64,000 bases of DNA from Candidatus Parcubacteria bacterium (GCA_963814275.1 CAWFCE010000001.1:131307-195306), one strand, 5' to 3'. Numbered from the stretch's first letter, positions 1-63,914 are shown. Translations and numbers: made by a program. Notes: generated by a model not told the origin, from the sequence alone.

Positions 1-431
1 TCGGCATCAATACCGCCATCGTCCAGGGAGCGCAGAATATTGGGTTTGCCATTCCGGTAAATGAGGCCAGGAACGTGTATGACAGCGTCCTGCAATACGG
101 CCGGATCGTCAGGCCGTGGCTGGGAGTGCGCTATATACCGGTTAACCAGGACCTGGCCGACCAGAACCAGTTGAGCGTCAATTACGGCGCGCTCATAGTG
201 CGGGGAGATACTACGGCAGACTTGGCTGTCATTCCCGGTTCGCCGGCTGACAAGGCAGGCCTTAAAGAAAACGATATTATACTCGAAGTAGACGGCCAGA
301 AACTTGATGAAAACCATCCTTTGTCCAGTATAATCGGCCAGCATAAGCCCGGCGACACGGTCAAACTGAAAATTTTATCCCAGGGACAGGAAAAAACCGT
401 GTCAATAAAACTCGAAGAAATGCAATCATAA
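1..431 (+). CDS. HtrA/DegP-family serine protease, C-terminal part (5' end lies outside the window)
   Basis: Frame is open from nt 3. The translation GINTAIVQGAQNIGFAIPVN matches the end of a trypsin-like domain. A PDZ-like segment follows (PGSPADKAGLKENDIILEVDGQKL). Stop TAA at 429-431. Confidence 0.8.
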   Translation, partial: GINTAIVQGAQNIGFAIPVNEARNVYDSVLQYGRIVRPWLGVRYIPVNQDLADQNQLSVNYGALIVRGDTTADLAVIPGSPADKAGLKENDIILEVDGQKLDENHPLSSIIGQHKPGDTVKLKILSQGQEKTVSIKLEEMQS

Positions 432-495
432 ATGACGGATAAACACGAATTGTATACGAATTTACACTAATCACAAATAAATAAAATCGATTGAA

Positions 496-530
496 AAGAC
501 AGCTGGCTTTCCCGCCAACTGTCTTTTTGT
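496..530 (+). terminator. Rho-independent terminator candidate after the protease gene
   Basis: Stem aagacagctgg (496-506) pairs with ccaactgtctt (515-525) with one mismatch, followed by tttttgtt. Confidence 0.6.
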
Positions 531-610
531 TCGCTTAAATGGGTGTGGTCCTGATTTTGCGAAAGAATCAGGACCGCAGTCATTTATAAGTAAATAGGCT
601 TGGTAATGAA

Positions 611-639
611 TTGCCAAACTTTTTTTGATATGTTAAAAT
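611..639 (+). promoter_or_regulatory. Sigma-70-like promoter candidate for the ABC-2 operon
   Basis: TTGCCA (611-616), a 17-nt spacer, then TAAAAT (634-639), about 33 nt upstream of the ATG at 672. Confidence 0.45.
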
Positions 640-671
640 TATAGTAGTTTTTATTTAATATAAGTTAAAAT

Positions 672-1466
672 ATGCGAAAGTATTGGGCAGTATTTCGATT
701 AAGCTTCGCCCGGATCATGGCTTACCGTTTCAATTTCCTGCTGGGCCGGCTGCGGAATGTGGTCGTGATGCTGCTATTGTTCTATGTCTGGCGGTCCCTC
801 ACTCTGAAAACAGGCTCTTTTGCCGGCTACACGGAGGCCGAACTTGTGGCTTACGTTTTTGGCATCAATATCCTGCGCTCGGTCATCTTCGGCGCCCAGT
901 CGCGCGATGTGGCTCATGAGATCAACCAGGGATATTTTTCCAAATATCTGGCCCAGCCGGTGAATTATTTTTGGTTCAATTGGTTCCGGGAGCTGGCCCA
1001 GCGATCGGTGAATACGTTGGCGGCGGTAGTGGAAGTTTCGCTTTTTGTTTTGATCCTGCGGGTAGATATTTTTACGCAAAGCAGCCGGCTCTTATTGGCT
1101 GCGTGCCTGTTGTCAATTATTTTGGCGGCGTTACTCTATTCGGTCATTTCCTATGCTGTCAGTCTGCTGGCTTTCTGGTCGCGCGAAGCGATGGGGCCGC
1201 GCTTCCTGTTCGAATGGATCCTGGAATCCGCCTCCGGCGCTTATTTCCCCCTCAACATCCTTTCCCCATTCTGGTTTGCCGTTCTTTCACGGTTGCCCTT
1301 CTTCTACCTCCTGTATCTCCCCATCAGCATTTATTTGGGCAGATACGGGTGGCCGCAAATAATGCTCGGATTGACCTGGCAGTTGTTTTGGCTGGTCGGA
1401 TTCAGCCTGCTTACGAAGGTGATCTGGGATAAGGGTTTGGAGCGTTATAGCGGCGAAGGGGCGTGA
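672..1466 (+). CDS. ABC-2 family transporter permease (pair 1, subunit A)
   Basis: 264-aa polytopic membrane protein. It is homologous in layout to the 3214 and 5770 ORFs (MxKYW start, SGAYFP-type motif, C-terminal GLxxY tail) and lies in an operon with an ABC ATPase. Confidence 0.75.
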   Translation: MRKYWAVFRLSFARIMAYRFNFLLGRLRNVVVMLLLFYVWRSLTLKTGSFAGYTEAELVAYVFGINILRSVIFGAQSRDVAHEINQGYFSKYLAQPVNYFWFNWFRELAQRSVNTLAAVVEVSLFVLILRVDIFTQSSRLLLAACLLSIILAALLYSVISYAVSLLAFWSREAMGPRFLFEWILESASGAYFPLNILSPFWFAVLSRLPFFYLLYLPISIYLGRYGWPQIMLGLTWQLFWLVGFSLLTKVIWDKGLERYSGEGA

Positions 1467-1542
1467 CAGATTTCGAATTATGGATGTTGAATGTCGGATA
1501 ATTTTAACCATAACGCTTTTCTGAAAAAATAATCAAGCGATT

Positions 1543-2328
1543 ATGAAAAAATATCTTAAGGTTTGGAAGCAGCTTAGTGTTTGCGCAATCGGATCATATC
1601 TATCCAACCGGATCGATTCTTTGAGCTATTTTTTGGGTAAGCTGGTCCGCTTCGGTTTTTTCCTGCTTTTGATCGTTTCCATCTTCCGCCATACCGATAA
1701 TTTGGCCGGCTACGGAAAATATGCAGTGATCTTATTCTTCCTGACATTCAACCTGATGGATGTCCTGCCCCAGGCTTTCTTCCGCGGCATATACCTTTTT
1801 CGCGACGATGTCCGGAAAGGCAACTTCGATTTTATCCTGGCTAAGCCGGTCAGTCCGCTTTTTTATTCCCTGACCAGGCTGACCGATCTTCTTGATATGC
1901 TTTTTCTCTTACCCACCATTGCCCTGATAGTTTACACTGTTTTGAAGCTTCCCGATGCCGTAACAGCCGTGAACATCGCGTCTTATGTGGGCTTTGTCCT
2001 GATCGGCATGCTGATTCTCGTCGGTATCCATATTTTGTCCGCCGTGATCACTGTCTGGACGCTGGAAAGCGAAAATTTCGTCTGGTTCTACCGCGAATCC
2101 ATGACCATCGGCCGCTTTCCCCCGGAAATTTACAGCCCGGTTGTCCAGGTTATTTTTACTTATTTCATGCCCGTAATCATAATTATCGCTTTTCCGGCCA
2201 AGGCTCTGCTGGGAATGTTGTCCGCGACAAATATCATACTGGCATTAATTTACAGTATTTTATTTTTTTCAACCGCGGTATTTCTGTGGCGTTTAAGCCT
2301 CAAGCATTACCAAAGCGCCTCGAGCTAG
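1543..2328 (+). CDS. ABC-2 family transporter permease (pair 1, subunit B)
   Basis: 261-aa polytopic membrane protein, paralogous in layout to the 3969 and 6525 ORFs, directly downstream of subunit A. Confidence 0.75.
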   Translation: MKKYLKVWKQLSVCAIGSYLSNRIDSLSYFLGKLVRFGFFLLLIVSIFRHTDNLAGYGKYAVILFFLTFNLMDVLPQAFFRGIYLFRDDVRKGNFDFILAKPVSPLFYSLTRLTDLLDMLFLLPTIALIVYTVLKLPDAVTAVNIASYVGFVLIGMLILVGIHILSAVITVWTLESENFVWFYRESMTIGRFPPEIYSPVVQVIFTYFMPVIIIIAFPAKALLGMLSATNIILALIYSILFFSTAVFLWRLSLKHYQSASS

Positions 2329-2330
2329 GA

Positions 2331-2431
2331 TTCCACTTGGCTTTACCTGCCTGCCGGCAGGCAGGGCCGAAGGTTCGCCAGGCTTCCACTTGGCTTCAGC
2401 CGAAGGTTCGCCAGGCTTTAGCCTGGTACAT
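2331..2431 (+). repeat. Family-2 palindromic repeat cluster, left-end (LE) type
   Basis: ttccacttggcttta, the 20-bp perfect palindrome cctgcctgccggcaggcagg (2346-2365), gccgaaggttcgccaggc units, and terminal hairpin ccaggc-ttta-gcctgg (2411-2426). Confidence 0.9.
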
Positions 2432-2463
2432 AACAAAGCGCAACAAAATTAAAATCGCAAAAA

Positions 2464-3057
2464 ATGCCCCATTACGCCCATTTGAAAAACGGCCCCGCAT
2501 ATTGGCCCGATGACGCCATTTATTTTCTGACCGACTCAACATTCATGCATTTCCCGTATTTTGATTCGCCCGAACAAAAGCAGATCGTTTTAAACCAGAT
2601 CAAAAAGATAAATAAATTATTAAGTATCCCTTTTTCCGCATTTAGTATTTCGAAAAATCATTATCATTTAAAATTTTATTTGGACAAGGGAGTTAAGCTC
2701 AATAAAGTAAAACAATATTTGCGAGGTGGAATTTCTTATGAATACAATAAAAGATTCGAAAAACCCTACCGGGAAATGTGGCAAACCCTGAAAACAGTAA
2801 TTGTCACGTCAGAAAGCATGGATTGGAAAGTGGCCGGATATATAATCGGTAATTTGATAAAACATCGGGAAGTCAGCACCTTTAACGACTTGATGGAAAA
2901 TGAGTATTCAAGTTTTTGGTATATGGCCGGTAAATACGGTTATGAGGAAATGGTAAGCTTGGTCAGGGAGATAATCGAAATAGATGAAAGCAGGGAAGGT
3001 GAGGTGGATTTACAGAAATTGAGCGGTTTAAATGTAAAGAAGTTTGTGAATAGATAG
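2464..3057 (+). CDS. Divergent RAYT-like / IS200-type HUH (Y1) transposase-family protein, copy 1
   Basis: Motifs occur in RAYT order: AIYFLT strand, HUH-like NHYHLKF, MWQ (RAYT has WQxRF), YIIGNLIKH (RAYT has YIxxNPVKH, the catalytic Tyr region) and EYSSF. The gene is bracketed by inverted repeat clusters. Confidence 0.6.
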   Translation: MPHYAHLKNGPAYWPDDAIYFLTDSTFMHFPYFDSPEQKQIVLNQIKKINKLLSIPFSAFSISKNHYHLKFYLDKGVKLNKVKQYLRGGISYEYNKRFEKPYREMWQTLKTVIVTSESMDWKVAGYIIGNLIKHREVSTFNDLMENEYSSFWYMAGKYGYEEMVSLVREIIEIDESREGEVDLQKLSGLNVKKFVNR

Positions 3058-3082
3058 TTATTTTTTGGGTGAATTTTACGGT

Positions 3083-3163
3083 GTATGAGGCTAAAGCCTC
3101 AACGACCTTCGGCCCTGCCTGCCGGCAGGCAGGTAAAGCCAAGTGGAAGCCTCAACGACCTTT
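3083..3163 (-). repeat. Family-2 palindromic repeat cluster, right-end (RE) type (inverted relative to LE)
   Basis: Hairpin tgaggc-taaa-gcctca (3086-3101), then accttcggc, palindrome 3114-3133, then taaagccaagtggaagcctcaacgaccttt. This is the reverse complement of the LE modules. Confidence 0.9.
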
Positions 3164-3213
3164 GACTAATGCGGAACGGAAGATATCCGATAATAACCTT
3201 TTGACTTTATCAC

Positions 3214-4011
3214 ATGAAAAAGTACTGGACCATTATCAACAATGAATTCCAGCGGCAGTTTACCTACCGGGCGAATATCCTGGCTTTTGTGCTGGGTAAT
3301 TTCGTCAATTTAATATCCTTGGTAGTGGTTTGGTACGCGGCTTACCGAAGCGTTGAATCGGTCGGCGGTTACAGCTTCCGGGAGATGATGACCTATGTCG
3401 TGGTTGGCTGGGTGATCTTGTTCATGACCAACAACTACGGCTTCGAATCGATCGTTTCCCGCGACATTCTGCTCGGCACGATGTCCAATTTCCTGACCAA
3501 GCCGATCTCTTATCTGCGCTACACCTTTGCCCGCTCCATCGGCCGGGTAATGGTGGCCTTTATGGTTGTGATCCTGCAGAGCGTTGCCTATATTTTATTA
3601 TTTCACGGTTTTCTCGTATTTCGCTTGGATTTTTTCGGCTCGATCGTGTTCTGCCTGATGCTGGCCATGAGCTTTGTCATCAAAATATTTTTCGCTATCC
3701 TGGTCGGCTTGATCGCTTTCTGGACGATCGATGTTTCGGGCGTGCAGACGGCCGCCAATGTCATCATCCGCTTTTTTTCCGGCGCCTACTTCCCGGTCAA
3801 CCTGCTGCCCGCCGCTTTCGTCAATGTCAGCCTGGCCCTGCCCTTCGTCTATACCCATTATGTCCCGACCCAGTTCTTTATCGGTAAGATCGATCTGCGC
3901 GGGGCGTTATACGGGGTCTTGGTGCAGTTTATCTGGCTAATCATTTTATATATCATCGTGAAATACATATGGAAAATCGGCCTCAAGAAATACGAAAGCG
4001 TCGGTATCTGA
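3214..4011 (+). CDS. ABC-2 family transporter permease (pair 2, subunit A, copy 1)
   Basis: 265-aa polytopic membrane protein with FSGAYFP motif and C-terminal GLKKYESVGI. Its translation is identical to the 5770 ORF. Confidence 0.8.
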   Translation: MKKYWTIINNEFQRQFTYRANILAFVLGNFVNLISLVVVWYAAYRSVESVGGYSFREMMTYVVVGWVILFMTNNYGFESIVSRDILLGTMSNFLTKPISYLRYTFARSIGRVMVAFMVVILQSVAYILLFHGFLVFRLDFFGSIVFCLMLAMSFVIKIFFAILVGLIAFWTIDVSGVQTAANVIIRFFSGAYFPVNLLPAAFVNVSLALPFVYTHYVPTQFFIGKIDLRGALYGVLVQFIWLIILYIIVKYIWKIGLKKYESVGI

Positions 4012-4811
4012 CATTCGCGCGGAAGATCATCGCGGTTAGCCGCAACGAATGGCTGAAAGCTTTTTTTTACCGGGTAAGTATCTTGTCCTTTCGCCTCGGG
4101 GAATTCGTGCAAGTGGCTTTCAATGTAATAATATGGACGGCCATCTTCCGCTCCGCGGCCGAAGTGGGCGGTTATGATTATCCGCAAATGATGACCTATA
4201 TCGTGGTCGGTTATTTGTTTGCCCTTTTGAGCGACAACTATGTCTATGAAGCCAATATATCACGCTTGATCCACGATGGGCGCCTTTCCAATATCATGGT
4301 AAAACCGATATCATTTCTCGGCTATATCGTGTCCGCCGCCCTGGGCCGGGTGAGCGTAACGATCTTTTCCTCGTCCTTTATGCTGCTGCCGATCATAATA
4401 TTTTGGAACCGGCTGTTGCCGCCCAGCGGTTTCTTGCCCGTCTTGATCATTCTGGCCATTTTGATCATCAGTTATTTCGTCAAACTCTTCCTGTCGATCC
4501 TAATCGGCATGATCGCGTTCTGGTTCATCCAGGTTTCCGGCTTCCAGTCGTCTTTCCGGCAACTGGAAAAAATGCTTTCCGGCTCTTATTTCCCGATCAA
4601 CATCCTGCCGTTAATTTACGTTAAGATCAGCCTGTTTTTCCCCTTTGCCTATACGTTTTTCGTGCCAATGCAGATCTATCTGGGCAAGATGGGTATTTTG
4701 GAAGGATTTATAAGCATCGGTGTAATATCCGCCTGGCTTCTTGCGCTTTATGGTATAATTAAATTGGTTTATAAAATGGGTTTAAAGAAATACGAAAGCG
4801 TCGGTATTTGA
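3969..4811 (+). CDS. ABC-2 family transporter permease (pair 2, subunit B, copy 1)
   Basis: 280-aa polytopic membrane protein. ATG 3969 is the only ATG/GTG/TTG upstream of the conserved RRYL N-terminus, which gives a 43-nt overlap with the upstream gene and suggests translational coupling. Confidence 0.75.
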   Translation: MENRPQEIRKRRYLTFARKIIAVSRNEWLKAFFYRVSILSFRLGEFVQVAFNVIIWTAIFRSAAEVGGYDYPQMMTYIVVGYLFALLSDNYVYEANISRLIHDGRLSNIMVKPISFLGYIVSAALGRVSVTIFSSSFMLLPIIIFWNRLLPPSGFLPVLIILAILIISYFVKLFLSILIGMIAFWFIQVSGFQSSFRQLEKMLSGSYFPINILPLIYVKISLFFPFAYTFFVPMQIYLGKMGILEGFISIGVISAWLLALYGIIKLVYKMGLKKYESVGI

Positions 4812-4830
4812 TAAATAATAAATGCATCCT

Positions 4831-4987
4831 CCACTTGGCTTTAGCGTTCGTCCGGGCTTACGCCAAAGACCGAAGGTTCGCCAGGCTTCCACTTGGCTTT
4901 ACCTGCCTGCCGGCAGGCAGGGCCGAAGGTTCGCCAGGCTTCCACTTGGCTTCAGCCGAAGGTTCGCCAGGCTTTAGCCTGGTACAT
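4831..4987 (+). repeat. Family-2 repeat cluster, extended LE type (copy-1/copy-2 junction)
   Basis: Three ccacttggctt units, palindrome 4902-4921, terminal hairpin ccaggctttagcctgg. The last 101 nt equal 2331-2431. Confidence 0.9.
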
Positions 4988-5019
4988 AATAAAGCGCAAC
5001 AAAATTAAAATCTCAAAAA

Positions 5020-5613
5020 ATGCCCCATTACGCCCCTTTGAAAAACAGCCCCACATATTGGCCCGATGACGCCATCTATTTTCTGACCGACTCAACATTC
5101 ATGCATTTCCCGTATTTTGATTCGTCCGAGCAAAAGCAAATCGTTTTAAACCAGATCAAAAAGATAAATAAATTATTGAGTATCCCTTTTTCCGCATATA
5201 GTATTTCGAAAAATCATTATCATTTAAAATTTTATTTGGATAAGGGAGTTAAGCTCAATAAAGTAAAACAATATTTGCGGGGTGGAATTTCTTATGAATA
5301 CAATAAAAGATTCGAAAAACCCTACCGGGAAATGTGGCAAACCCTGAAAACAGTAATTGTCACGTCAGAAAGCATGGATTGGAAAGTGGCCGGATATATA
5401 ATCGGTAATTTGATAAAACATCGGGAAGTCAGCACCTTTAACGACTTGATGGAAAATGAGTATTCAAGTTTTTGGTATATGGCCGGTAAATACGGTTATG
5501 AGGAAATGGTAAGCTTGGTCAGGGAGATAATCGAAATAGATGAAAGCAGGGAAGGTGAGGTGGATTTACAGAAATTGAGCGGTTTAAATGTAAAGAAGTT
5601 TGTGAATAGATAG
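5020..5613 (+). CDS. Divergent RAYT-like HUH protein, copy 2
   Basis: 197 aa. It differs from copy 1 at five residues (H6P, G10S, A12T, P35S, F59Y) plus several synonymous changes, all in the 5' third. Confidence 0.6.
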   Translation: MPHYAPLKNSPTYWPDDAIYFLTDSTFMHFPYFDSSEQKQIVLNQIKKINKLLSIPFSAYSISKNHYHLKFYLDKGVKLNKVKQYLRGGISYEYNKRFEKPYREMWQTLKTVIVTSESMDWKVAGYIIGNLIKHREVSTFNDLMENEYSSFWYMAGKYGYEEMVSLVREIIEIDESREGEVDLQKLSGLNVKKFVNR

Positions 5614-5638
5614 TTAATTTTTGGGTAAATTTTACGGT

Positions 5639-5719
5639 GTATGAGGCTAAAGCCTCAACGACCTTCGGCCCTGCCTGCCGGCAGGCAGGTAAAGCCAAGT
5701 GGAAGCCTCAACGACCTTT
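5639..5719 (-). repeat. Family-2 repeat cluster, RE type (copy 2)
   Basis: Same sequence as 3083-3163, shifted by 2,556 nt. Palindrome at 5670-5689. Confidence 0.9.
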
Positions 5720-5769
5720 GGCTAATGCGGAACGGAAGATATCCGATAATAACCTTTTGACTTTATCAC

Positions 5770-6567
5770 ATGAAAAAGTACTGGACCATTATCAACAATG
5801 AATTCCAGCGGCAGTTTACCTACCGGGCGAATATCCTGGCTTTTGTGCTGGGTAATTTCGTCAATTTAATATCCTTGGTAGTGGTTTGGTACGCGGCTTA
5901 CCGAAGCGTTGAATCGGTCGGCGGTTACAGCTTCCGGGAGATGATGACCTATGTCGTGGTTGGCTGGGTGATCTTGTTCATGACCAACAACTACGGCTTC
6001 GAATCGATCGTTTCCCGCGACATTCTGCTCGGCACGATGTCCAATTTCCTGACCAAGCCGATCTCTTACCTGCGCTACACCTTTGCCCGCTCCATCGGCC
6101 GGGTAATGGTGGCCTTTATGGTTGTGATCCTGCAGAGCGTTGCCTATATTTTATTATTTCACGGTTTTCTCGTATTTCGCTTGGATTTTTTCGGCTCGAT
6201 CGTGTTCTGCCTGATGCTGGCCATGAGCTTTGTCATCAAAATATTTTTCGCTATCCTGGTCGGCTTGATCGCTTTCTGGACGATCGATGTTTCGGGCGTG
6301 CAGACGGCCGCCAATGTCATCATCCGCTTTTTTTCCGGCGCCTACTTCCCGGTCAACCTGCTGCCCGCCGCTTTCGTCAATGTCAGCCTGGCCCTGCCCT
6401 TCGTCTATACCCATTATGTCCCGACCCAGTTCTTTATCGGTAAGATCGATCTGCGCGGGGCGTTATACGGGGTCTTGGTGCAGTTTATCTGGCTAATCAT
6501 ATTATATATCATCGTGAAATACATATGGAAAATCGGCCTCAAGAAATACGAAAGCGTCGGTATCTGA
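5770..6567 (+). CDS. ABC-2 family transporter permease (pair 2, subunit A, copy 2)
   Basis: Protein identical to the 3214..4011 product. Confidence 0.8.
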   Translation: MKKYWTIINNEFQRQFTYRANILAFVLGNFVNLISLVVVWYAAYRSVESVGGYSFREMMTYVVVGWVILFMTNNYGFESIVSRDILLGTMSNFLTKPISYLRYTFARSIGRVMVAFMVVILQSVAYILLFHGFLVFRLDFFGSIVFCLMLAMSFVIKIFFAILVGLIAFWTIDVSGVQTAANVIIRFFSGAYFPVNLLPAAFVNVSLALPFVYTHYVPTQFFIGKIDLRGALYGVLVQFIWLIILYIIVKYIWKIGLKKYESVGI

Positions 6568-7367
6568 CATTCGCGCGGAAGATCATCGCGGTTAGCCGCA
6601 ACGAATGGCTGAAAGCTTTTTTTTACCGGGTAAGTATCTTGTCCTTTCGCCTCGGGGAATTCGTGCAAGTGGCTTTCAATGTAATAATATGGACGGCCAT
6701 CTTCCGCTCCGCGGCCGAAGTGGGCGGTTATGATTATCCGCAAATGATGACCTATATCGTGGTCGGTTATTTGTTTGCCCTTTTGAGCGACAACTATGTC
6801 TATGAAGCCAATATATCACGCTTGATCCACGATGGGCGCCTTTCCAATATCATGGTAAAACCGATATCATTTCTCGGCTATATCGTGTCCGCCGCCCTGG
6901 GCCGGGTGAGCGTAACGATCTTTTCCTCGTCCTTTATGCTGCTGCCGATCATAATATTTTGGAACCGGCTGTTGCCGCCCAGCGGTTTCTTGCCCGTCTT
7001 GATCATTCTGGCCATTTTGATCATCAGTTATTTTGTCAAACTCTTCCTGTCGATCCTGATCGGCATGATCGCGTTCTGGTTCATCCAGGTTTCCGGCTTC
7101 CAGTCGTCTTTCCGGCAACTGGAAAAAATGCTTTCCGGCTCTTATTTCCCGATCAACATCCTGCCGTTAATTTACGTTAAGATCAGCCTGTTTTTCCCCT
7201 TTGCCTATACGTTTTTCGTGCCAATGCAGATCTATCTGGGCAAAATGAGTATTGGGGAGGGTTTTGTGAGTATCGGTGTAATATCCGCCTGGCTTCTTGC
7301 GCTTTATGGTATAATTAAATTGGTTTATAAAATGGGTTTAAAGAAATACGAAAGCGTCGGTATTTGA
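6525..7367 (+). CDS. ABC-2 family transporter permease (pair 2, subunit B, copy 2)
   Basis: 280 aa. It differs from copy 1 only near the C-terminus (KMSIGEGFVSIGV versus KMGILEGFISIGV). Confidence 0.75.
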   Translation: MENRPQEIRKRRYLTFARKIIAVSRNEWLKAFFYRVSILSFRLGEFVQVAFNVIIWTAIFRSAAEVGGYDYPQMMTYIVVGYLFALLSDNYVYEANISRLIHDGRLSNIMVKPISFLGYIVSAALGRVSVTIFSSSFMLLPIIIFWNRLLPPSGFLPVLIILAILIISYFVKLFLSILIGMIAFWFIQVSGFQSSFRQLEKMLSGSYFPINILPLIYVKISLFFPFAYTFFVPMQIYLGKMSIGEGFVSIGVISAWLLALYGIIKLVYKMGLKKYESVGI

Positions 7368-7386
7368 TAAATAATAAATGCATCCT

Positions 7387-7539
7387 CCACTTGGCTTTAG
7401 CGTTCGTCCGGGCTTACGCCAAAGACCGAAGGTTCGCCAGGCTTCCACTTGGCTTTACCTGCCCGCCGGCAGGCAGGTAAAGCCAAGTGGAAGCCTCAAC
7501 GACCTTCGGCCCTGCCTGCCGGCAGGCAGGTAAAGCCAA
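7387..7539. repeat. Family-2 repeat cluster: LE joined directly to RE with no gene between them (empty element)
   Basis: 7443-7492 is a near-perfect 50-bp palindrome (ttccacttggctttacctgcccgcc|ggcaggcaggtaaagccaagtggaa). An RE module with a second palindrome follows (7511-7530). Confidence 0.9.
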
Positions 7540-7584
7540 TCGAACGATGTCGTATTTTTGTAGTAATTATATTATCATAATAAT

Positions 7585-8580
7585 ATGCCTATCATCGAAG
7601 TTAAAAAACTGAAGAAGACTTACGAGTACTATAAGAAACAGCCCGGATTAATGGCGTCCTTTACCGGATTGTTCAAACGGGAGAAGCTTTTTGCCGAAGC
7701 GGTCAAGGAGATCGATTTTTCGATCGAAGAAGGGGAGCTGATCGGCTTTGTCGGCCCGAACGGCGCCGGCAAGACCACCACCCTGAAAATGCTTTCCGGC
7801 ATTCTCTACCCCAGTTCCGGGGAAGCGAGGGTGCTCGGGCATACCCCCTGGGAGCGGAAGAAGGAATACCAGAAGCAGTTCGCGATCGTGATGGGGCAGA
7901 AGAACCAGCTCTGGTGGGACCTGCCGCCGATGGAAAGTTTCATCCTGAACAAGGAAATCTACGAAGTGAGCGATGAGGATTTCAGGTCCGTTATGGATGA
8001 ATTGGTCGAACTTCTGGATGTCAAGGATATCATCAACGTGCCGGTCCGGAAGCTTTCACTGGGCCAGCGGATGAAGTGCGAACTGATCGCCGCCCTTCTG
8101 CACCGCCCGAAAGTGCTGTTTCTGGACGAGCCGACCATCGGCCTGGACGTGGTGGCGCAGAAGAATATCCGCGATTTTATCCGCAAATATAACCGCGAAA
8201 AAAAGACCACCATCATCCTGACCTCGCATTATATGGAAGACATCAGGGAGCTTTGCGAGCGGATTATTATTATCGATTCCGGCAAGATCATCTATGACGG
8301 TTCGCTCAATGAAGTGATCAAAAAGTATGCTCCTTATAAAGAGCTGAAAATTACTTTTAACGGGGACGGTATTACCCGTGACCAGGCCGAACAGTACGGC
8401 AAGCTGGATAGGTTCGATCCGCATTCGATCGTTCTGCGCGTCGAGCGGGAGCGGACCAAGGAAGCGGCCGCCAGAATTCTCGCCTCCGACCTGCCGGTGG
8501 ACGACATCCTGATAGACGAGGTCGATATCCAGCGCGTGATTCGAAGGATATTCAATAGCCATCACAAGACAGTAAGCTAA
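7585..8580 (+). CDS. ABC transporter ATP-binding protein (partner of the ABC-2 permeases)
   Basis: Walker A GPNGAGKTTT, signature LSLGQRM, Walker B VLFLDEPT, and the QLWWDLP segment typical of this ATPase subfamily. Confidence 0.9.
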   Translation: MPIIEVKKLKKTYEYYKKQPGLMASFTGLFKREKLFAEAVKEIDFSIEEGELIGFVGPNGAGKTTTLKMLSGILYPSSGEARVLGHTPWERKKEYQKQFAIVMGQKNQLWWDLPPMESFILNKEIYEVSDEDFRSVMDELVELLDVKDIINVPVRKLSLGQRMKCELIAALLHRPKVLFLDEPTIGLDVVAQKNIRDFIRKYNREKKTTIILTSHYMEDIRELCERIIIIDSGKIIYDGSLNEVIKKYAPYKELKITFNGDGITRDQAEQYGKLDRFDPHSIVLRVERERTKEAAARILASDLPVDDILIDEVDIQRVIRRIFNSHHKTVS

Positions 8581-8620
8581 TTTTTGTTGTATAATAATAT
8601 TAAAGTAATATTTACCGGTT

Positions 8621-9715
8621 ATGGAAAATTTGCTCAAAAATCTGGAAAATTTGCGTGAACGGGTCAATGAAACCCGGAAGCTTTTGGATATTGACCGAAA
8701 AAAATCAAAGGTGCACGAGTTGCGATCCGAGATGAACCAGCCGGGCTTTTGGGATAACCAGGGAAAAGCGGTGGATATAAGCAAGCGGGCGGAGGATCTG
8801 GAAAAAGAAGTTAACGAGTGGCAGGATTTTTCCCGGGAAATACGCGATCTGGAGGAATTGGTGGCCGAAGCGATCAAGGAAAATGACGCTTCAATCGAAG
8901 CCGAAGCCAACGAACAATACGCCAAACTTCTCAAAAAATACGAAAAACTGGAATTTTATATATTATTCTCCGGCAAATACGACGAGAACGGCGCGATCCT
9001 TTCGATCCATGCCGGTACCGGCGGGGTTGACGCCCAGGATTGGTCGCAGCTGCTTGAACGGATGTTCCTTCGTTTTGCGGAAAAGATGAATTGGCGGACA
9101 GAGATCGTCGACCGGACGATCGGTAATGAAGCCGGCATCAAGAGCATGACCATGCGCATTCCGGGTCGCTACGCATACGGGTACCTGAAAAGCGAATCCG
9201 GCGTGCATCGGCTGGTCCGGATCAGCCCTTTTGACGCGGAGGCGATGCGCCATACTTCATTCGCCCTGGTCGAAGTGATCCCCGATCTGGACGATGCGGC
9301 GGAGATCGAGCTTAACGAGGCTGATCTGCGTATAGACGTTTTCCGCTCCTCCGGACCGGGCGGCCAGGGGGTGAATACGACTGATTCGGCCGTCCGGATC
9401 AAGCATCTGCCGACCGGCATCATAGTCACCTGCCAGAACGAGCGCAGCCAGCACCAGAACAAGGAAACCGCCATGAAGATCCTCAAGGCCAAACTGTTCA
9501 GGCTGGAAGAAGAAAAACGCGAAGCCGAAGAATTGAAACTGCGCGGGGAGGCGCAGAAGGCCGAATGGGGCAAACAGATCCGCTCCTATGTGCTGCAGCC
9601 TTACAAAATGGTCAAGGATCACCGGACTGAACATGAAACGCAGGATGTGGACGGAGTTTTGGACGGCGACCTGACAGAATTTATGGAATCATATTTGAAG
9701 TGGATAAAGAAATAA
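8621..9715 (+). CDS. prfB: Peptide chain release factor 2
   Basis: SPF tripeptide (RISPFD), GGQ motif (SGPGGQGVNTTDSAVRIKHLPTG), 364 aa. The ORF is uninterrupted, so no +1 frameshift site is present. Confidence 0.9.
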   Translation: MENLLKNLENLRERVNETRKLLDIDRKKSKVHELRSEMNQPGFWDNQGKAVDISKRAEDLEKEVNEWQDFSREIRDLEELVAEAIKENDASIEAEANEQYAKLLKKYEKLEFYILFSGKYDENGAILSIHAGTGGVDAQDWSQLLERMFLRFAEKMNWRTEIVDRTIGNEAGIKSMTMRIPGRYAYGYLKSESGVHRLVRISPFDAEAMRHTSFALVEVIPDLDDAAEIELNEADLRIDVFRSSGPGGQGVNTTDSAVRIKHLPTGIIVTCQNERSQHQNKETAMKILKAKLFRLEEEKREAEELKLRGEAQKAEWGKQIRSYVLQPYKMVKDHRTEHETQDVDGVLDGDLTEFMESYLKWIKK

Positions 9716-9815
9716 TTTTCGATTCAATAATTATTTAATTGCATTTGTTAATAATTTCATTCGGTTTTGTCCACCCGCTTTCATGTAGGCATATATTATA
9801 ATAAAAAAATATATT

Positions 9816-9848
9816 AAAACACCTTTCCTCCAAGAGGTGTTTTTATTT
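9816..9848 (+). terminator. Rho-independent terminator candidate after prfB
   Basis: aaaacacct (9816-9824) pairs with aggtgtttt (9835-9843) and runs into a T-run. It abuts the RAYT start codon. Confidence 0.55.
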
Positions 9849-10517
9849 ATGGAAATTCATGAACTAAAACATAAACGTAAATCATACAGAATGCGGGATT
9901 ACGATTATAGTTCGCCTGGTTATTATTTTGTAACAATTTGCGTCAAGAACAAAACTTGCTGTTTGGGAAAAATCGTCGCGGGAGAAGATCGGTTTATTAC
10001 CGGCGAAATCAAGTTGTCGGAATTAGGCCGAATCGTAAATGATGTTTGGCTGTCTATTCCGGAACATCATAAAGTTGTTGAATTGGCCGAGTTTGTAATT
10101 ATGCCGAATCATATCCACGGGATAATTGGCATTAATGATATGGATTTCCGTAGGGGCATTGCGCGCAATACCCCAGAACGTGGCGATCCGCAAGCACTTT
10201 GCGCCAACCACCGCCGGGGCGTAGCACGCTACGCCCCTACGAATATGGATAAACGATGTTTTATTAAACAACCATCCGGATCCTTATCAACGATAATCGG
10301 TTCATTTAAATCTGAGGAATCAAGACGAATTCATGTGCTTCCAAAATGGAAAAATTTTAGCTGGCAGAGAAATTATTATGAACATATAATCGATAGTGAA
10401 AAATCATTGGAGTACATTCGATATTATATCGAAAATAATCCGATCAAGTGGTATGAAGATATCAATAATCCTAAAAATCGATTTACCGAATATCAGATAA
10501 AATATTATTACAAATAA
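9849..10517 (+). CDS. REP-associated tyrosine transposase (RAYT, IS200-like HUH/Y1 family)
   Basis: YYFVTICV strand, HUH motif MPNHIHGII, SWQRNYYEHII, and catalytic-Tyr region YIENNPIKW. The ORF track starts at GTG 9837, but ATG 9849 is better placed behind aagagg. It contains an in-frame 93-nt REP doublet. Confidence 0.85.
   Translation: MEIHELKHKRKSYRMRDYDYSSPGYYFVTICVKNKTCCLGKIVAGEDRFITGEIKLSELGRIVNDVWLSIPEHHKVVELAEFVIMPNHIHGIIGINDMDFRRGIARNTPERGDPQALCANHRRGVARYAPTNMDKRCFIKQPSGSLSTIIGSFKSEESRRIHVLPKWKNFSWQRNYYEHIIDSEKSLEYIRYYIENNPIKWYEDINNPKNRFTEYQIKYYYK
10149..10241 (+). repeat. Family-1 REP doublet (REPIN-like), copy inside the RAYT coding sequence
   Basis: GTAG plus hairpin ggggcattgcgcgcaatacccc at the left and ggggcgtagcacgctacgcccc plus CTAC at the right. 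It is 93 nt (31 codons) and matches 10534-10626 at 92 of 93 positions. Confidence 0.95.
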
Positions 10518-10533
10518 TTATTCCCCAGGTAAT

Positions 10534-10626
10534 CGTAGGGGCATTGCGCGCAATGCCCCAGAACGTGGCGATCCGCAAGCACTTTGCGCCAACCACCGCC
10601 GGGGCGTAGCACGCTACGCCCCTACA
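10534..10626 (+). repeat. Family-1 REP doublet (REPIN-like), copy 17 nt downstream of the RAYT stop
   Basis: cgtaggggcattgcgcgcaatgcccca...ggggcgtagcacgctacgcccctaca. Two GC-rich hairpins sit in inverted orientation, each headed by GTAG. Confidence 0.95.
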
Positions 10627-10639
10627 CCGTTATAATATT

Positions 10640-12208
10640 ATGTCGAAATCGAAAATATTCTTTTATTCCTGCTTGGCCTTTATCGCCGGTATTGGCTCCG
10701 CTTCTTTTTTGCCGGAATCGGTTTTGTCTTATGAATTGCATTGGTTCGTTGCTGGAATATTGTTTTTAACCAGCGCGGCTATATTTCACAGACAAAGGAA
10801 AAACAAAGATAAGTCGGAAAATGGATTGTCTTTGGCGCCGTTATTGTTGGTCTTGGCTTTTTTCTTTTTCGGCCTGTGGCGCTATGCGTTAAGCATGCCG
10901 GTAAATTCGTCCGGGAATATTCAATACTACAACGGCTATTTTGCGGACGTTACCGGTTTGATCACGGGTGAACCGGATGTCCGCGAAGCAAGCCAGCGGC
11001 TGGAGATTACGGTGAAATCGATTGAGATAAAAGGGAAAACGGATAAGGCGCAAAAAGCGGACGGAAAACTATTGGTCGCCACAGCCCTTTATCCGCAGTA
11101 CAAATACGGCGATGTTATCAGGACAGAATGCGAACTCATGGCGCCCGAACCATTCGATGATTTTGCCTATGACCGCTATCTGGCGCGCTATAACGTTTAT
11201 GCGGTCTGTTATTATCCCAAGGTTGTTGAAACGGTCGGATCCGGTCAGGGCAATCGCTTGGTTGCCGGAGTTTTGGCGATAAAGAATAAAATGAAGCATA
11301 TTCTCAATAGGGGGCTGGACGAATTACCGGCGTCATTGGCGCGGGCAATGCTTCTGGGCGATAAGCGCGGCTTGCCTGAAGATGTCCGTGAAGCGTTTTC
11401 GTGCGCGGGTTTGAGCCATTTGGCGGCCATTTCCGGAATGCATATCAGTATTATCTCGGCAATGGTGATGACCGGGCTCATCTATCTGGGGTTCAGACGC
11501 CGGCAGGCATATTACCTGGCGACGCTTTTTCTATTGTTCTATATCATATTGATTGGTTTGCCGGCTAGCGCCATCAGGGCCGGTATTATGGGGTTTTTGG
11601 TTTTGACCGCGATGGAGCTCGGCCGATTGAACCGGGCCGTTAATTCACTGGTGCTGGCTGCGGCCGTGATGCTCTTAATGAATCCGCGGCTTCTGCGGGA
11701 CGATATCGGCTTCCAGCTTTCTTTTGCCGCGGTTGCCGGCCTGGTTTTTTTCTATCCCCTGGGCTCTGCCCTCTATCGGCGGCTGGAGGACAGGTTTTCG
11801 ATTCCCACAGCCGGCGGCGGGGTCGCGGCGATACTGCTGGTAACCATATCCGCCCAATTAGCTACCTGGCCGCTTACCGCATATTATTTTTCTTCATTCA
11901 CCTGGGTGGCGCCCATGAGCAATCTCGTTGTCCTATGGGTATTGCCGTTCTTGTTCGTTTCCTTGGTCGGAGGCTTGGTCATTGCCTTCTTTCTGCCCGG
12001 CTTCGGTTATCTCGCTCTGCTTCCCGCCCGTTTGATTTTGGATTACATAATCGCTGTGGCGAGATACGCGGCCGCTTTTGCCGGGAATAACGAATACCGG
12101 ACCGGTTGGCTGTTTGTCGCCGTATATTACGCATTATTCGGGATTCTTTGGATATCAATGCCGATGTTAAAAAAAATTTTTCTTCGTAATCGCCTTTTTC
12201 CCGGTTAA
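10640..12208 (+). CDS. comEC: ComEC/Rec2-family DNA internalisation channel protein (no C-terminal metallo-beta-lactamase domain)
   Basis: Polytopic 522-aa protein with the competence-domain signature RAMLLGDKRGLPEDVREAFSCAGLSHLAAISGMHISII. It ends without an HxHxDH domain. Confidence 0.85.
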   Translation: MSKSKIFFYSCLAFIAGIGSASFLPESVLSYELHWFVAGILFLTSAAIFHRQRKNKDKSENGLSLAPLLLVLAFFFFGLWRYALSMPVNSSGNIQYYNGYFADVTGLITGEPDVREASQRLEITVKSIEIKGKTDKAQKADGKLLVATALYPQYKYGDVIRTECELMAPEPFDDFAYDRYLARYNVYAVCYYPKVVETVGSGQGNRLVAGVLAIKNKMKHILNRGLDELPASLARAMLLGDKRGLPEDVREAFSCAGLSHLAAISGMHISIISAMVMTGLIYLGFRRRQAYYLATLFLLFYIILIGLPASAIRAGIMGFLVLTAMELGRLNRAVNSLVLAAAVMLLMNPRLLRDDIGFQLSFAAVAGLVFFYPLGSALYRRLEDRFSIPTAGGGVAAILLVTISAQLATWPLTAYYFSSFTWVAPMSNLVVLWVLPFLFVSLVGGLVIAFFLPGFGYLALLPARLILDYIIAVARYAAAFAGNNEYRTGWLFVAVYYALFGILWISMPMLKKIFLRNRLFPG

Positions 12209-25946: not shown

Positions 25947-26027
25947 CTTTACCGCCGATTATTCGCCGATTATTACGCTGATCTTACCTGCCTACCGGCA
26001 GGCAGGCGCGGATAATTCGCTATCGAT
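25947..26027 (-). repeat. Family-2b palindromic element
   Basis: The reverse complement reads atcgat..ccgcgcctgcctgccggtaggcaggt..atcagcg..cggcggtaaag, matching 59750-59823. Palindrome at 25987-26006. Confidence 0.85.
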
Positions 26028-38203: not shown

Positions 38204-38293
38204 CGTTGGGGCATTGCGCGCAATACCCCAACCGTGGCGGCGCCATCGGGCCGCATCAACCACGGCCGGGGCGTAGCACGCTACACCACTACG
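38204..38293 (+). repeat. Family-1 REP doublet, diverged copy
   Basis: cgttggggcattgcgcgcaataccccaa ... ggggcgtagcacgctacaccactacg. Both terminal hairpins are recognisable. The head is GTTG instead of GTAG, and the central ~35 nt is replaced. Confidence 0.85.
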
Positions 38294-38378
38294 ACATTAG
38301 GCTCAATAATTTTGAAAAATTTACTGATTATATAGATAATGATTTTTATAATCAGTCAAAATATGTTATAATATAATC

Positions 38379-57683: not shown

Positions 57684-57787
57684 TTCTTCCACTCGGCTTC
57701 ACCTGCCTGCCGGCAGGCAGGGCCGAAGGTCCGTCAGGCTTCCACTTGGCTTCAGCCGAAGGTCCGCCAGGCTTTAGCCTGGTACAT
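57684..57787 (+). repeat. Family-2 repeat cluster, LE type, solo copy in the rplW-rplB spacer
   Basis: ttccactcggcttcacctgcctgccggcaggcagggccgaaggtccgtcaggcttccacttggcttcagccgaaggtccgccaggctttagcctggtacat. It closely resembles 2331-2431, differing at a handful of positions. Confidence 0.9.
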
Positions 57788-59749: not shown

Positions 59750-59823
59750 ATCGATTATCAGCGTTAAATCCGCGCCTGCCTGCCGGTAGGCAGGTGGCAA
59801 TAGGCGTAAAATCAGCGGTAAAG
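59750..59823 (+). repeat. Family-2b palindromic element in the rplV-rpsC spacer
   Basis: atcgattatcagcgttaaatccgcg, then cctgcctgccggtaggcagg (59775-59794), then tggcaataggcgtaaaatcagcggtaaag. Confidence 0.85.
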
Positions 59824-63850: not shown

Positions 63851-63914
63851 ATAATTATCCGCGTTGAATCCGCGCCTGCCGGCAGGCAGTAATCTGCGTT
63901 AAATCGGCGGTTAA
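63851..63914 (+). repeat. Family-2b palindromic element (short palindrome variant) in the rpsH-rplF spacer
   Basis: ataattatccgcgttgaatccgcg, then cctgccggcagg (63875-63886), then cagtaatctgcgttaaatcggcggttaag. Confidence 0.8.

Follow-up and report, generated by a model that had tools for sequence, protein, structure and literature searches.

Probable tandem duplication in a transporter operon

The analysed stretch of 64,000 nt from Candidatus Parcubacteria bacterium (GCA_963814275.1, CAWFCE010000001.1:131307-195306), referred to here as the window, contains an ABC-2 transporter operon in which a block of approximately 2.6 kb occurs twice, head to tail. Each block consists, in this order, of a cluster of repetitive extragenic palindromic (REP)-like repeats, a gene for a 197-amino-acid (aa) HUH/Tyr protein resembling the REP-associated tyrosine transposases (RAYTs), a further REP cluster, and the permease genes permC and permD. 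The whole operon reads permA-permB-(RAYT-like gene-permC-permD)x2-REP doublet-ATPase. The sequence comparisons described below indicate that the pair is probably a real segmental tandem duplication, which arose by unequal exchange between directly oriented REP-like modules.

Comparison of the window with itself at an offset of exactly 2,556 nt revealed that 2324-4921 recurs at 4880-7477, a repeated stretch that amounts to one full unit and 42 nt of a third. Outside 2324-4921, the identity at this offset became abruptly random, with approximately 36 mismatches per 50 nt. The unit at 2331-4886 and its second copy differed by 29 substitutions without any insertion or deletion (98.9% identity). 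All three open reading frames (ORFs) were intact in both copies and shifted by 2,556 nt, namely the RAYT-like gene (2464-3057 and 5020-5613, + strand, 197 aa each), permC (3214-4011 and 5770-6567), and permD (3969-4811 and 6525-7367). The offset comparison and the ORF coordinates agree with the first-pass annotation, which had proposed a tandem unit 2331-4886 repeated at 4887-7442 with its ORFs offset by 2,556 nt, followed by a third unit begun and then broken off; the homology indeed stopped sharply at 7477. Tandem Repeats Finder reported nothing on 2000-8000. The exact repetition without an indel and the sharp ends of homology at 2324 and 7477 support duplication by unequal exchange.

Structure of the junctions

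A 42-nt direct repeat was present in three clusters spaced 2556 nt apart, designated J1 (at 2324), J2 (at 4880), and J3 (at 7436). The J1 and J3 versions of this repeat were 93% identical, with 3 mismatches. J1 departed from J2 and J3 at two positions, 2330 and 2326, the latter lying within the permB stop codon (TAG, 2326-2328) which this cluster overlaps, and position 7464 was the only one at which J3 departed from the other two. In the join region J2 (4829-4987, + strand), a degenerate unit precedes the left REP cluster of copy 2. The modules of J2 were without exception in left-end orientation, and no right-end-type module could be found among them. J2 was the same as J3 at 4882 and 4886 and the same as J1 at 4908. 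Its left flank was J3-like throughout (4811-4886 = 7367-7442), and its right flank was J1-like throughout, continuing after the 42-nt repeat with GCCGAAGG toward the RAYT-like gene. Since J2 matches J3 up to 4886 and J1 from 4908, it combines sequence from both outer clusters, and the exchange took place within 21 nt of the shared repeat, TTCCACTTGGCTTTACCTGCC (4887-4907, + strand). This mosaic, with its switch inside 21 identical nt, upholds the earlier suggestion that the breakpoints lie inside palindromic repeats. Head-to-tail copies, one short repeat shared by both outer ends and the join, and a hybrid join, by which a tandem duplication is recognised, were all observed at this locus.

J3 (7385-7539, unstranded) is a gene-less REP doublet, in which left-end-type units are joined via a palindrome to right-end-type units; it has the form of a left-type half of hairpin B, the palindrome, and a right-type half of hairpin B' (both hairpins are described below). 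The 50-nt palindrome that had been noticed at 7443-7492 was present with one mismatch and proved to lie at the centre of an 84-nt inverted repeat (7426-7509), predicted to fold as single-stranded DNA at -50.2 kcal/mol (z = -10.3). The first-pass annotation had taken this site for an empty left-end/right-end junction created by the duplication. That origin was rejected, J3 being a repeat of the parental arrangement; the sequence identifies it as a pre-existing downstream doublet, REPIN-like in form, which would have been one of the two exchange partners. J3 itself may have originated by a palindrome exchange between left and right clusters, for example with deletion of a resident gene, or it may equally be a REPIN-like doublet.

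The parental arrangement would have been permA-permB-J1 left REP cluster-RAYT-like gene-right REP cluster-permC-permD-J3 REP doublet-ATPase. Sister chromosomes would then have undergone unequal exchange within the 21 identical nt of the J1/J3 repeat, by short-homology recombination or by replication template switching, aided by the hairpin-forming repeats. A single event of this kind would have produced both the second set of RAYT-like gene, REP cluster, permC, and permD, head to tail with the first, and the hybrid junction J2. Unequal exchange between direct repeats is favoured because the partners have the same orientation and J2 is without a right-end-type module. Of the two mechanisms suggested in the first pass, unequal recombination is the one retained; a conventional HUH reaction between a left and a right end is not favoured, as J2 carries left-end modules only. 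Tandem duplications joined at REP sequences are on record, according to a passage in PMC7661048 that cites Shyamala, Schneider & Ames 1990, and REP sequences have been found at 4 amplification junctions, where the homology was shorter than the REP itself (PMC1428787).

Differences between the two copies

The 29 substitutions, slightly more than the approximately 25 first estimated by eye, were distributed unevenly along the aligned units, as that estimate had also held. No difference was present in 2331-2433 (100% identity), 13 fell within the 291 nt of 2434-2724 (95.5%), 7 within the 1,963 nt of 2725-4687 (99.64%), 9 within the 28 nt of 4688-4715 (68%), and none in 4716-4886 (100%). Permutation revealed that the clustering was significant both for the 291-nt cluster (p approximately 5e-4) and for the 28-nt patch (p < 5e-5). 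The two RAYT-like proteins were 97.5% identical, with the five amino-acid differences H6P, G10S, A12T, P36S, and F60Y, and the two permD proteins were 98.9% identical, reading GILEGFI in one copy and SIGEGFV in the other; both sets of changes were as first described. The permC copies were 100% identical. The substitutions were mostly synonymous (pN/pS 0.18, p approximately 1e-4), which at the sequence level is a signature of purifying selection. A donor for the 28-nt divergent permD patch could not be found within the window, and the permD orthologues of two homologous loci, L009 and L014, pointed to neither copy as ancestral. The divergent edges may have arisen by gene conversion or by allele import.

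The main uncertainty is an assembly artefact, in which one real unit, present as two strain variants, would have been strung in tandem by traversing a REP repeat node twice. The source is evidently a metagenome-derived Patescibacteria contig, and all homologues of the RAYT-like protein are likewise proteins from metagenomes or metagenome-assembled genomes (MAGs). The differences between the copies, being mostly synonymous and arranged in recombination-like patches, also resemble those between alleles of different strains. For such a join, however, no more than 21 identical nt would have been available, within a 42-nt repeat containing 3 mismatches, and 21 nt is presumably shorter than the k-mers or overlaps that normally underlie final contigs, a requirement which itself supports a real exchange. 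Moreover, 99%-identical repeats of 2.5 kb are usually collapsed by assemblers and not usually expanded, and the breakpoints fall exactly at a pre-existing direct repeat, as expected for a biological exchange. An artefactual origin is considered unlikely.

Several observations nevertheless weigh against a real duplication. A single contig of 457,738 nt is the sole source of both protein variants; the RAYT-like and permD clusters at 90% identity hold just the copies from this source contig (two members in the case of the RAYT-like protein), and no independent assembly with either variant was found, which is equally compatible with an artefact. The homology used was at most 35 nt apart from one mismatch, which is short for RecA-dependent exchange. 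Further, the patchy differences and the pN/pS of 0.18 look like functional alleles of different strains, and if the duplication is real, alleles must have been imported later, both copies must have been under selection for a long time, or the core must have undergone gene conversion. Unequal exchange between REP-like modules is still preferred, and both copies are presumably present in the cell.

REP clusters and hairpin repeats

A common repeat unit could be derived by reading the window sequences against homologous loci. In left-end orientation, it comprises TTCCAC, hairpin B (TTGGC-TTCA/TTTA-GCCGAA), GGTTCGCC, and hairpin A (CCAGGC-TTTA-GCCTGG). The left REP cluster of copy 1, which is J1 (2324-2431, + strand), contains TTCCAC, hairpin B with CCTGCCTGCCGGCAGGCAGG in its loop, GGTTCGCC, a second unit, and hairpin A. 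The right REP cluster of copy 1 (3086-3166, + strand) is inverted and contains hairpin A' (TGAGGC-TAAA-GCCTCA), hairpin B' with the palindrome in its loop, GTGGAA, and a partial further unit; its counterpart in copy 2 was located at 5642-5722 (+ strand) by repeat comparison. Inverted REP hairpins, the hallmark of a REPtron, flank the RAYT-like gene: 2327-2385 pairs with 3094-3152 over 59 nt at 90% complementarity, and the arms pair likewise in each copy. The sequence nested in the hairpin-B loop in this genome, CCTGCCTGCCGGCAGGCAGG, is a perfect 20-nt palindrome, and the REP modules at the locus include GCCGAAGGTTCGCCAGGCTT and AGGCTTCCACTTGGCTT besides it.

A solo left REP cluster, palindrome included, was found at 57686-57787 (+ strand). 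It occupies the spacer that directly precedes rplB and has the orientation of the genes, with no RAYT-like gene adjacent; it was the one solo cluster in the window beyond the duplicated locus. Because the whole left cluster recurs alone at this site, the repeats are dispersed elements and more than flanks of the gene, and dispersed repeats of this kind can act as portable homology. The locus probably illustrates, cleanly and in nature, how short palindromic repeats serve as portable homology and duplicate genes in a reduced Patescibacteria genome; gene-family expansion is rare in such genomes. The palindrome CCTGCCTGCCGGCAGGCAGG or a close variant also occurred at 25987-26006, 59775-59794, and 63871-63890, in other flanks (...AATCCGCG) and with no RAYT-type unit. 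These sequences suggest that the palindrome is a module in its own right, which at RAYT-like loci is nested within the loop of hairpin B.

The repeat plan at L009, a locus in another Parcubacteria MAG, agrees with that of the window (TTTCCAC CGGGCTTTAGCCCAG GGTTCTCA AGGCTTTAGCCT). Across eight loci, hairpins of the form C-TTTA-G or C-TAAA-G were 82-fold enriched within 300 nt of the RAYT-like gene, with 42 in 5.4 kb compared to 16 in 168.6 kb. Their orientation was biased, with TTTA:TAAA ratios of 11:7 upstream and 6:18 downstream (Fisher p 0.027, the hairpins lying in arrays and their counts not being independent). The stems varied between genomes; the loop, rather than the hairpin foot, is the most conserved element of the repeat. 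A conserved GTGG or GTAG was present beside hairpin B' in the window (GCCAAGTGGAA), L004 (CTCGGTAGAAA), and L001 (CTCGGTGGAAA), located 3' of the hairpin on the strand reading GT[AG]G. At L007, five tandem 45-nt two-hairpin REP units (AGCAAGCTAAAGCTTACGGGAYCCTCACCTAAAGGTGGGTGGA) were observed at 6590-6810, directly downstream of the RAYT-like gene. Rfam gave no match on 1-12000 of the window, and a promoter and terminator scan revealed no terminator-like site within the REP clusters. Judged from the sequences and the protein model described below, the REP clusters constitute a REPtron-like system around a protein of predicted TnpA-REP fold.

The 197-aa RAYT-like protein family

The RAYT-like protein scored just under the cut-off of Pfam Y1_Tnp (PF01797; 22.5 bits, cut-off 23) and well under that of NCBIfam REP_Tyr_transpos (NF047646; 34.6 bits against 80). 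A total of 89 homologues with 43-67% identity could be collected; every one with a named taxon belonged to the Patescibacteria, a precomputed PF01797 match was recorded for only some of the 89, and a minority carried a source name such as 'transposase'. The family is small, as an exhaustive profile search of 1.84 billion representatives returned 33 members at E<=1e-30 and 455 at E<=1e-3.

Alignment of 46-47 homologues revealed the invariant residues N65-H66-x-H68, W106-Q107, and G125-Y126-x-x-G129-N130-L131-x-K133-H134. The HuH motif is NH[YL]H with N65, H66, and H68 invariant, and the invariant W106 and Q107 form the WQ motif, both as in RAYTs; WQ is listed for TnpAY1 subclasses 2.4-2.7 (Quentin et al. 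2018, PMC6006769). The Y motif reads Y-I-I-G-N-L with an invariant Leu131 and departs from the signature of class 2 TnpAY1 (RAYT), Y-x3-N-P (PMC6006769). An AlphaFold (AF2) model of the protein (pLDDT 89.9, pTM 0.87) had as its best PDB fold match in Foldseek 4er8_A, the E. coli TnpA-REP on a REP hairpin (E 1.1e-6), with a TM score of 0.72 on the target, a root-mean-square deviation of 3.1 A over 154 columns, and approximately 14% sequence identity. The fold matches to the TnpA proteins of IS608 and ISDra2 were approximately 1000-fold weaker (E approximately 1e-3). A profile search of the PDB sequences with the family produced chance galectin matches only.

Two paralogues (P0005 and P0021) in a single MAG, GCA_974770705.1, were 71% identical, and tblastn of the window detected no further RAYT-like copy, the sole near-identical pair being that of the segmental duplication. 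Low copy number and diverged intragenomic copies are both RAYT features. The first-pass annotation had considered a duplicated RAYT notable on the ground that RAYTs are usually single-copy; this argument is weak, as the extra copy rode along in a segmental duplication and the family has diverged paralogues within one MAG. Its label 'RAYT-like' remains fair, given the invariant HxH, WQ, and Tyr in 46 homologues, the best fold match 4ER8, and the inverted hairpin flanks: by its predicted fold and its motifs the protein is TnpA-REP-like, and it fails the curated cut-offs and the NP signature. Patescibacteria and Parcubacteria are not mentioned in the TnpAY1 classification of PMC6006769, and no relevant publication was found in a literature search for RAYTs in Patescibacteria or the Candidate Phyla Radiation. 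The family is missed by current curated models and by the published classification. A RAYT-like HUH protein is conserved in Patescibacteria and is accompanied by a hairpin repeat family of its own; the genes for this protein lie inside operons, including pheS-pheT.

These properties bear on the possibility that the duplication was made by the RAYT-like HUH/Tyr protein itself, which would have cut single-stranded DNA at equivalent sites of two REP units and rejoined it across sister strands; the gene-less joint in J3 would perhaps be another product of such strand transfer. The invariance of the catalytic HxH and Tyr and the match to a TnpA-REP bound to its hairpin are compatible with this activity, and REP DNA is cleaved in vitro by E. 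coli TnpA-REP (PMC6006769). Moreover, the crossover interval holds the conserved TTCCAC and, from hairpin B, the GGCTTTA of its 5' arm and loop, and J3 is joined exactly at the palindrome within the hairpin-B loop. However, the outcome would be the same as that of a homology-driven exchange, and nothing requires an enzyme. J2 joins two left-end-oriented units, whereas an excised circle or dimer of the IS200/IS605 type is expected to give a right-end/left-end joint, and the family offers neither a cleavage site for comparison nor a second independent event with an equal joint. An enzymatic origin is quite unlikely on this evidence, and exchange driven by homology remains the preferred account. 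A broader proposal holds that the 197-aa proteins form an unclassified, Patescibacteria-restricted TnpA-Y1 branch with CTAAAG-loop hairpins, whose enzyme would catalyse both the left-end/left-end exchange and the left-end/right-end joint. It is regarded as decidedly unlikely; if true, the locus would preserve in nature the traces of a genome rearrangement driven by a RAYT and of the formation of REPINs.

Arrangements in related genomes

The operon could be compared with homologous loci in relatives. L014 carries permB-permC-permD-ATPase without the RAYT-like gene, the ATPase gene following directly after permD; L008 carries permA-permB-ATPase, and more distant genomes carry ATPase-permA-permB. 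In L009, a RAYT-like gene (60% identical) stands downstream of permA-permB-permC-permD, with one REP cluster on either side of it. The arrangements of L014, L009, and L008 indicate that permC and permD are, by sequence, old neighbours of permA and permB, and that the operon spacer in which the RAYT-like gene and its repeats reside varies from lineage to lineage. A one-copy, gene-free state of the operon exists in nature. The occurrence of these component states in L014, L008, and L009 supports the duplication by unequal exchange. The RAYT-like gene of L009 (12440-13420) stands after permD, where the window has the gene-less J3, and the right-type units downstream of it are followed by two left-type units, forming inverted doublets. 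A history starting from an L009-like ancestor, with a triplication and two deletions, was rejected, as it calls for three events where one suffices.

The RAYT-like gene was also found between pheS and pheT and between the genes for UDP-glucose dehydrogenase and epimerase, the latter site being identical in two genomes whose proteins are 77% identical. In 8/8 loci (L001, L004, L007, L009, L017, L018, L019, and the window), the gene was co-oriented with both of its neighbours, and its position was often internal to an operon, which suggests read-through expression, strand-specific insertion, or vertical inheritance.

Such insertion sites in spacers of unrelated operons suggest mobility, and the whole 2.6-kb block is bracketed by REP-type hairpins; a composite transposon or IS dimer was considered for these reasons. 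The segment, starting at the left end, spanning the RAYT-like gene, permC, and permD, and closing with a right-end-type hairpin, would have moved as an IS200/IS605-like element and been reinserted alongside the original. This explanation was rejected, since the end of unit 1 (J2) is without a right-end-oriented module. It is further opposed by the ancestral position of permC and permD beside permA and permB in relatives lacking the gene there (L014 and L009), by the absence of tnpB and of near-identical copies elsewhere in the window, and by the motifs, which are NH[YL]H and Y-x3-N as opposed to the DH[VI]H and Y-x3-Q of IS200 (PMC6006769 Table 1). A transposon origin is highly improbable, and unequal exchange is retained.

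Genes of the transporter operon

All permeases were assigned to PF06182 (ABC2_membrane_6). The single-copy permA (672-1466, + strand) scored 79.5 bits, and the single-copy permB (1543-2328, + strand) scored 132 bits. Both duplicated permeases are also on the + strand, with 84.6 bits for permC copy 1 and 73.4 bits for permD copy 1. The ABC ATPase gene (7585-8580, + strand; PF00005, 93.3 bits) is 78% identical to the ATPase of L014; the permC/permD pair occurs twice beside this single-copy gene. The permC and permD proteins shared 40% identity with each other and 20-28% with those of permA and permB, and the orthologues of permA and permB in L008, L009, and L014 were 52-65% identical.

permC and permD overlap by 43 nt (3969-4011), matched in L009 at 11600-11642, and the N-terminal extension of permD is conserved between the window and L009 (MENRPQEIRKRR / MESGHQTIRKRG). 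Because the same overlap and the conserved extension are found in both genomes, the overlap is probably real.

A second RAYT/REP system in the window

A second, unrelated RAYT gene was located at 9837-10517 (+ strand). Its 226-aa protein contains NHIH, WQ, and YIENNP and scored 35.4 bits against Pfam Y1_Tnp; hhalign of the 197-aa family against it aligned the HuH strand alone. The gene holds a REP at 10149-10240, and dropping these 93 nt gives a contiguous protein. A 99%-identical copy of this REP was found just past the stop codon (10534-10625), and a diverged copy near 38.2 kb (approximately 38205-38295). In-frame REP insertions in tnpA-REP have already been described for subclass 2.4 (Quentin et al. 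2018, PMC6006769), which the second RAYT matches by sequence. With two unlike RAYT genes that have their own REPs, the window holds two different RAYT/REP systems.

Comparison with known systems

The TnpA proteins of the IS200/IS605 family (IS608 and ISDra2) share with the RAYT-like protein the HUH/Y1 fold and the subterminal hairpins beside the gene. They differ in carrying DH[VI]H and Y-x3-Q where the present family has NH[YL]H and Y-x3-N, and the hairpins flanking the RAYT-like gene are mostly in opposite orientation. Subclass 1.1 is defined by DH[VI]H, Y-x3-Q, a high copy number at approximately 99% identity, and a frequent tnpB partner (PMC6006769 Table 1). For the RAYT-like gene, no adjacent tnpB-sized ORF and no dispersed identical copies were found in the window.

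Similarity to the E. coli TnpA-REP/REPtron system (4ER8, REP/BIME; class 2 TnpAY1) was more extensive and included the best fold match, the invariant HxH, WQ, and single Tyr with N at +4, the inverted flanking hairpins, the gene-free repeats, and the diverged intragenomic paralogues. The RAYT-like family differs from TnpA-REP in its approximately 14% identity, its position below the Pfam and NCBIfam cut-offs, its Y-x3-N-L in place of Y-x3-N-P, and its being known only from Patescibacteria. The repeats differ as well: the window hairpins have a conserved CTTTAG/CTAAAG loop and a neighbouring TTCCAC/GTGGAA, whereas canonical REPs have a 5' GT[AG]G foot.

J3 can be compared with the REPINs, reportedly described by Bertels and Rainey in 2011 as REP doublets forming hairpins, and with 'double-foot' REPs. 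It shares with them two inverted REP units that form one long hairpin, an intergenic position, and the lack of a transposase gene inside. Unlike REPINs, J3 is the only such doublet in 64 kb, and a 20-nt perfect palindrome is nested in its hairpin loop. Together with hairpins A and B, the nested palindrome, J1, and J2, it provides a defined substrate for asking what RAYT-type enzymes do.

The closest parallel to the duplication itself is found in the REP-mediated duplications of Shyamala, Schneider and Ames (1990), in which the copies are likewise head to tail and the join points reportedly lie inside pre-existing, directly oriented palindromic repeats at both ends of the segment, the homology used being shorter than the repeat. 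The present case differs in its host, which belongs to the Patescibacteria and is not an enterobacterium, in its REP family, and in its segment, which at 2.6 kb is small and carries the gene for the REP-associated HUH protein along with it. REP-mediated tandem duplications are already known, and this one, in a REPtron-like setting and an unusual host, leaves the current understanding unchanged; it involves a RAYT-like family in a little-studied lineage, outside the curated models.

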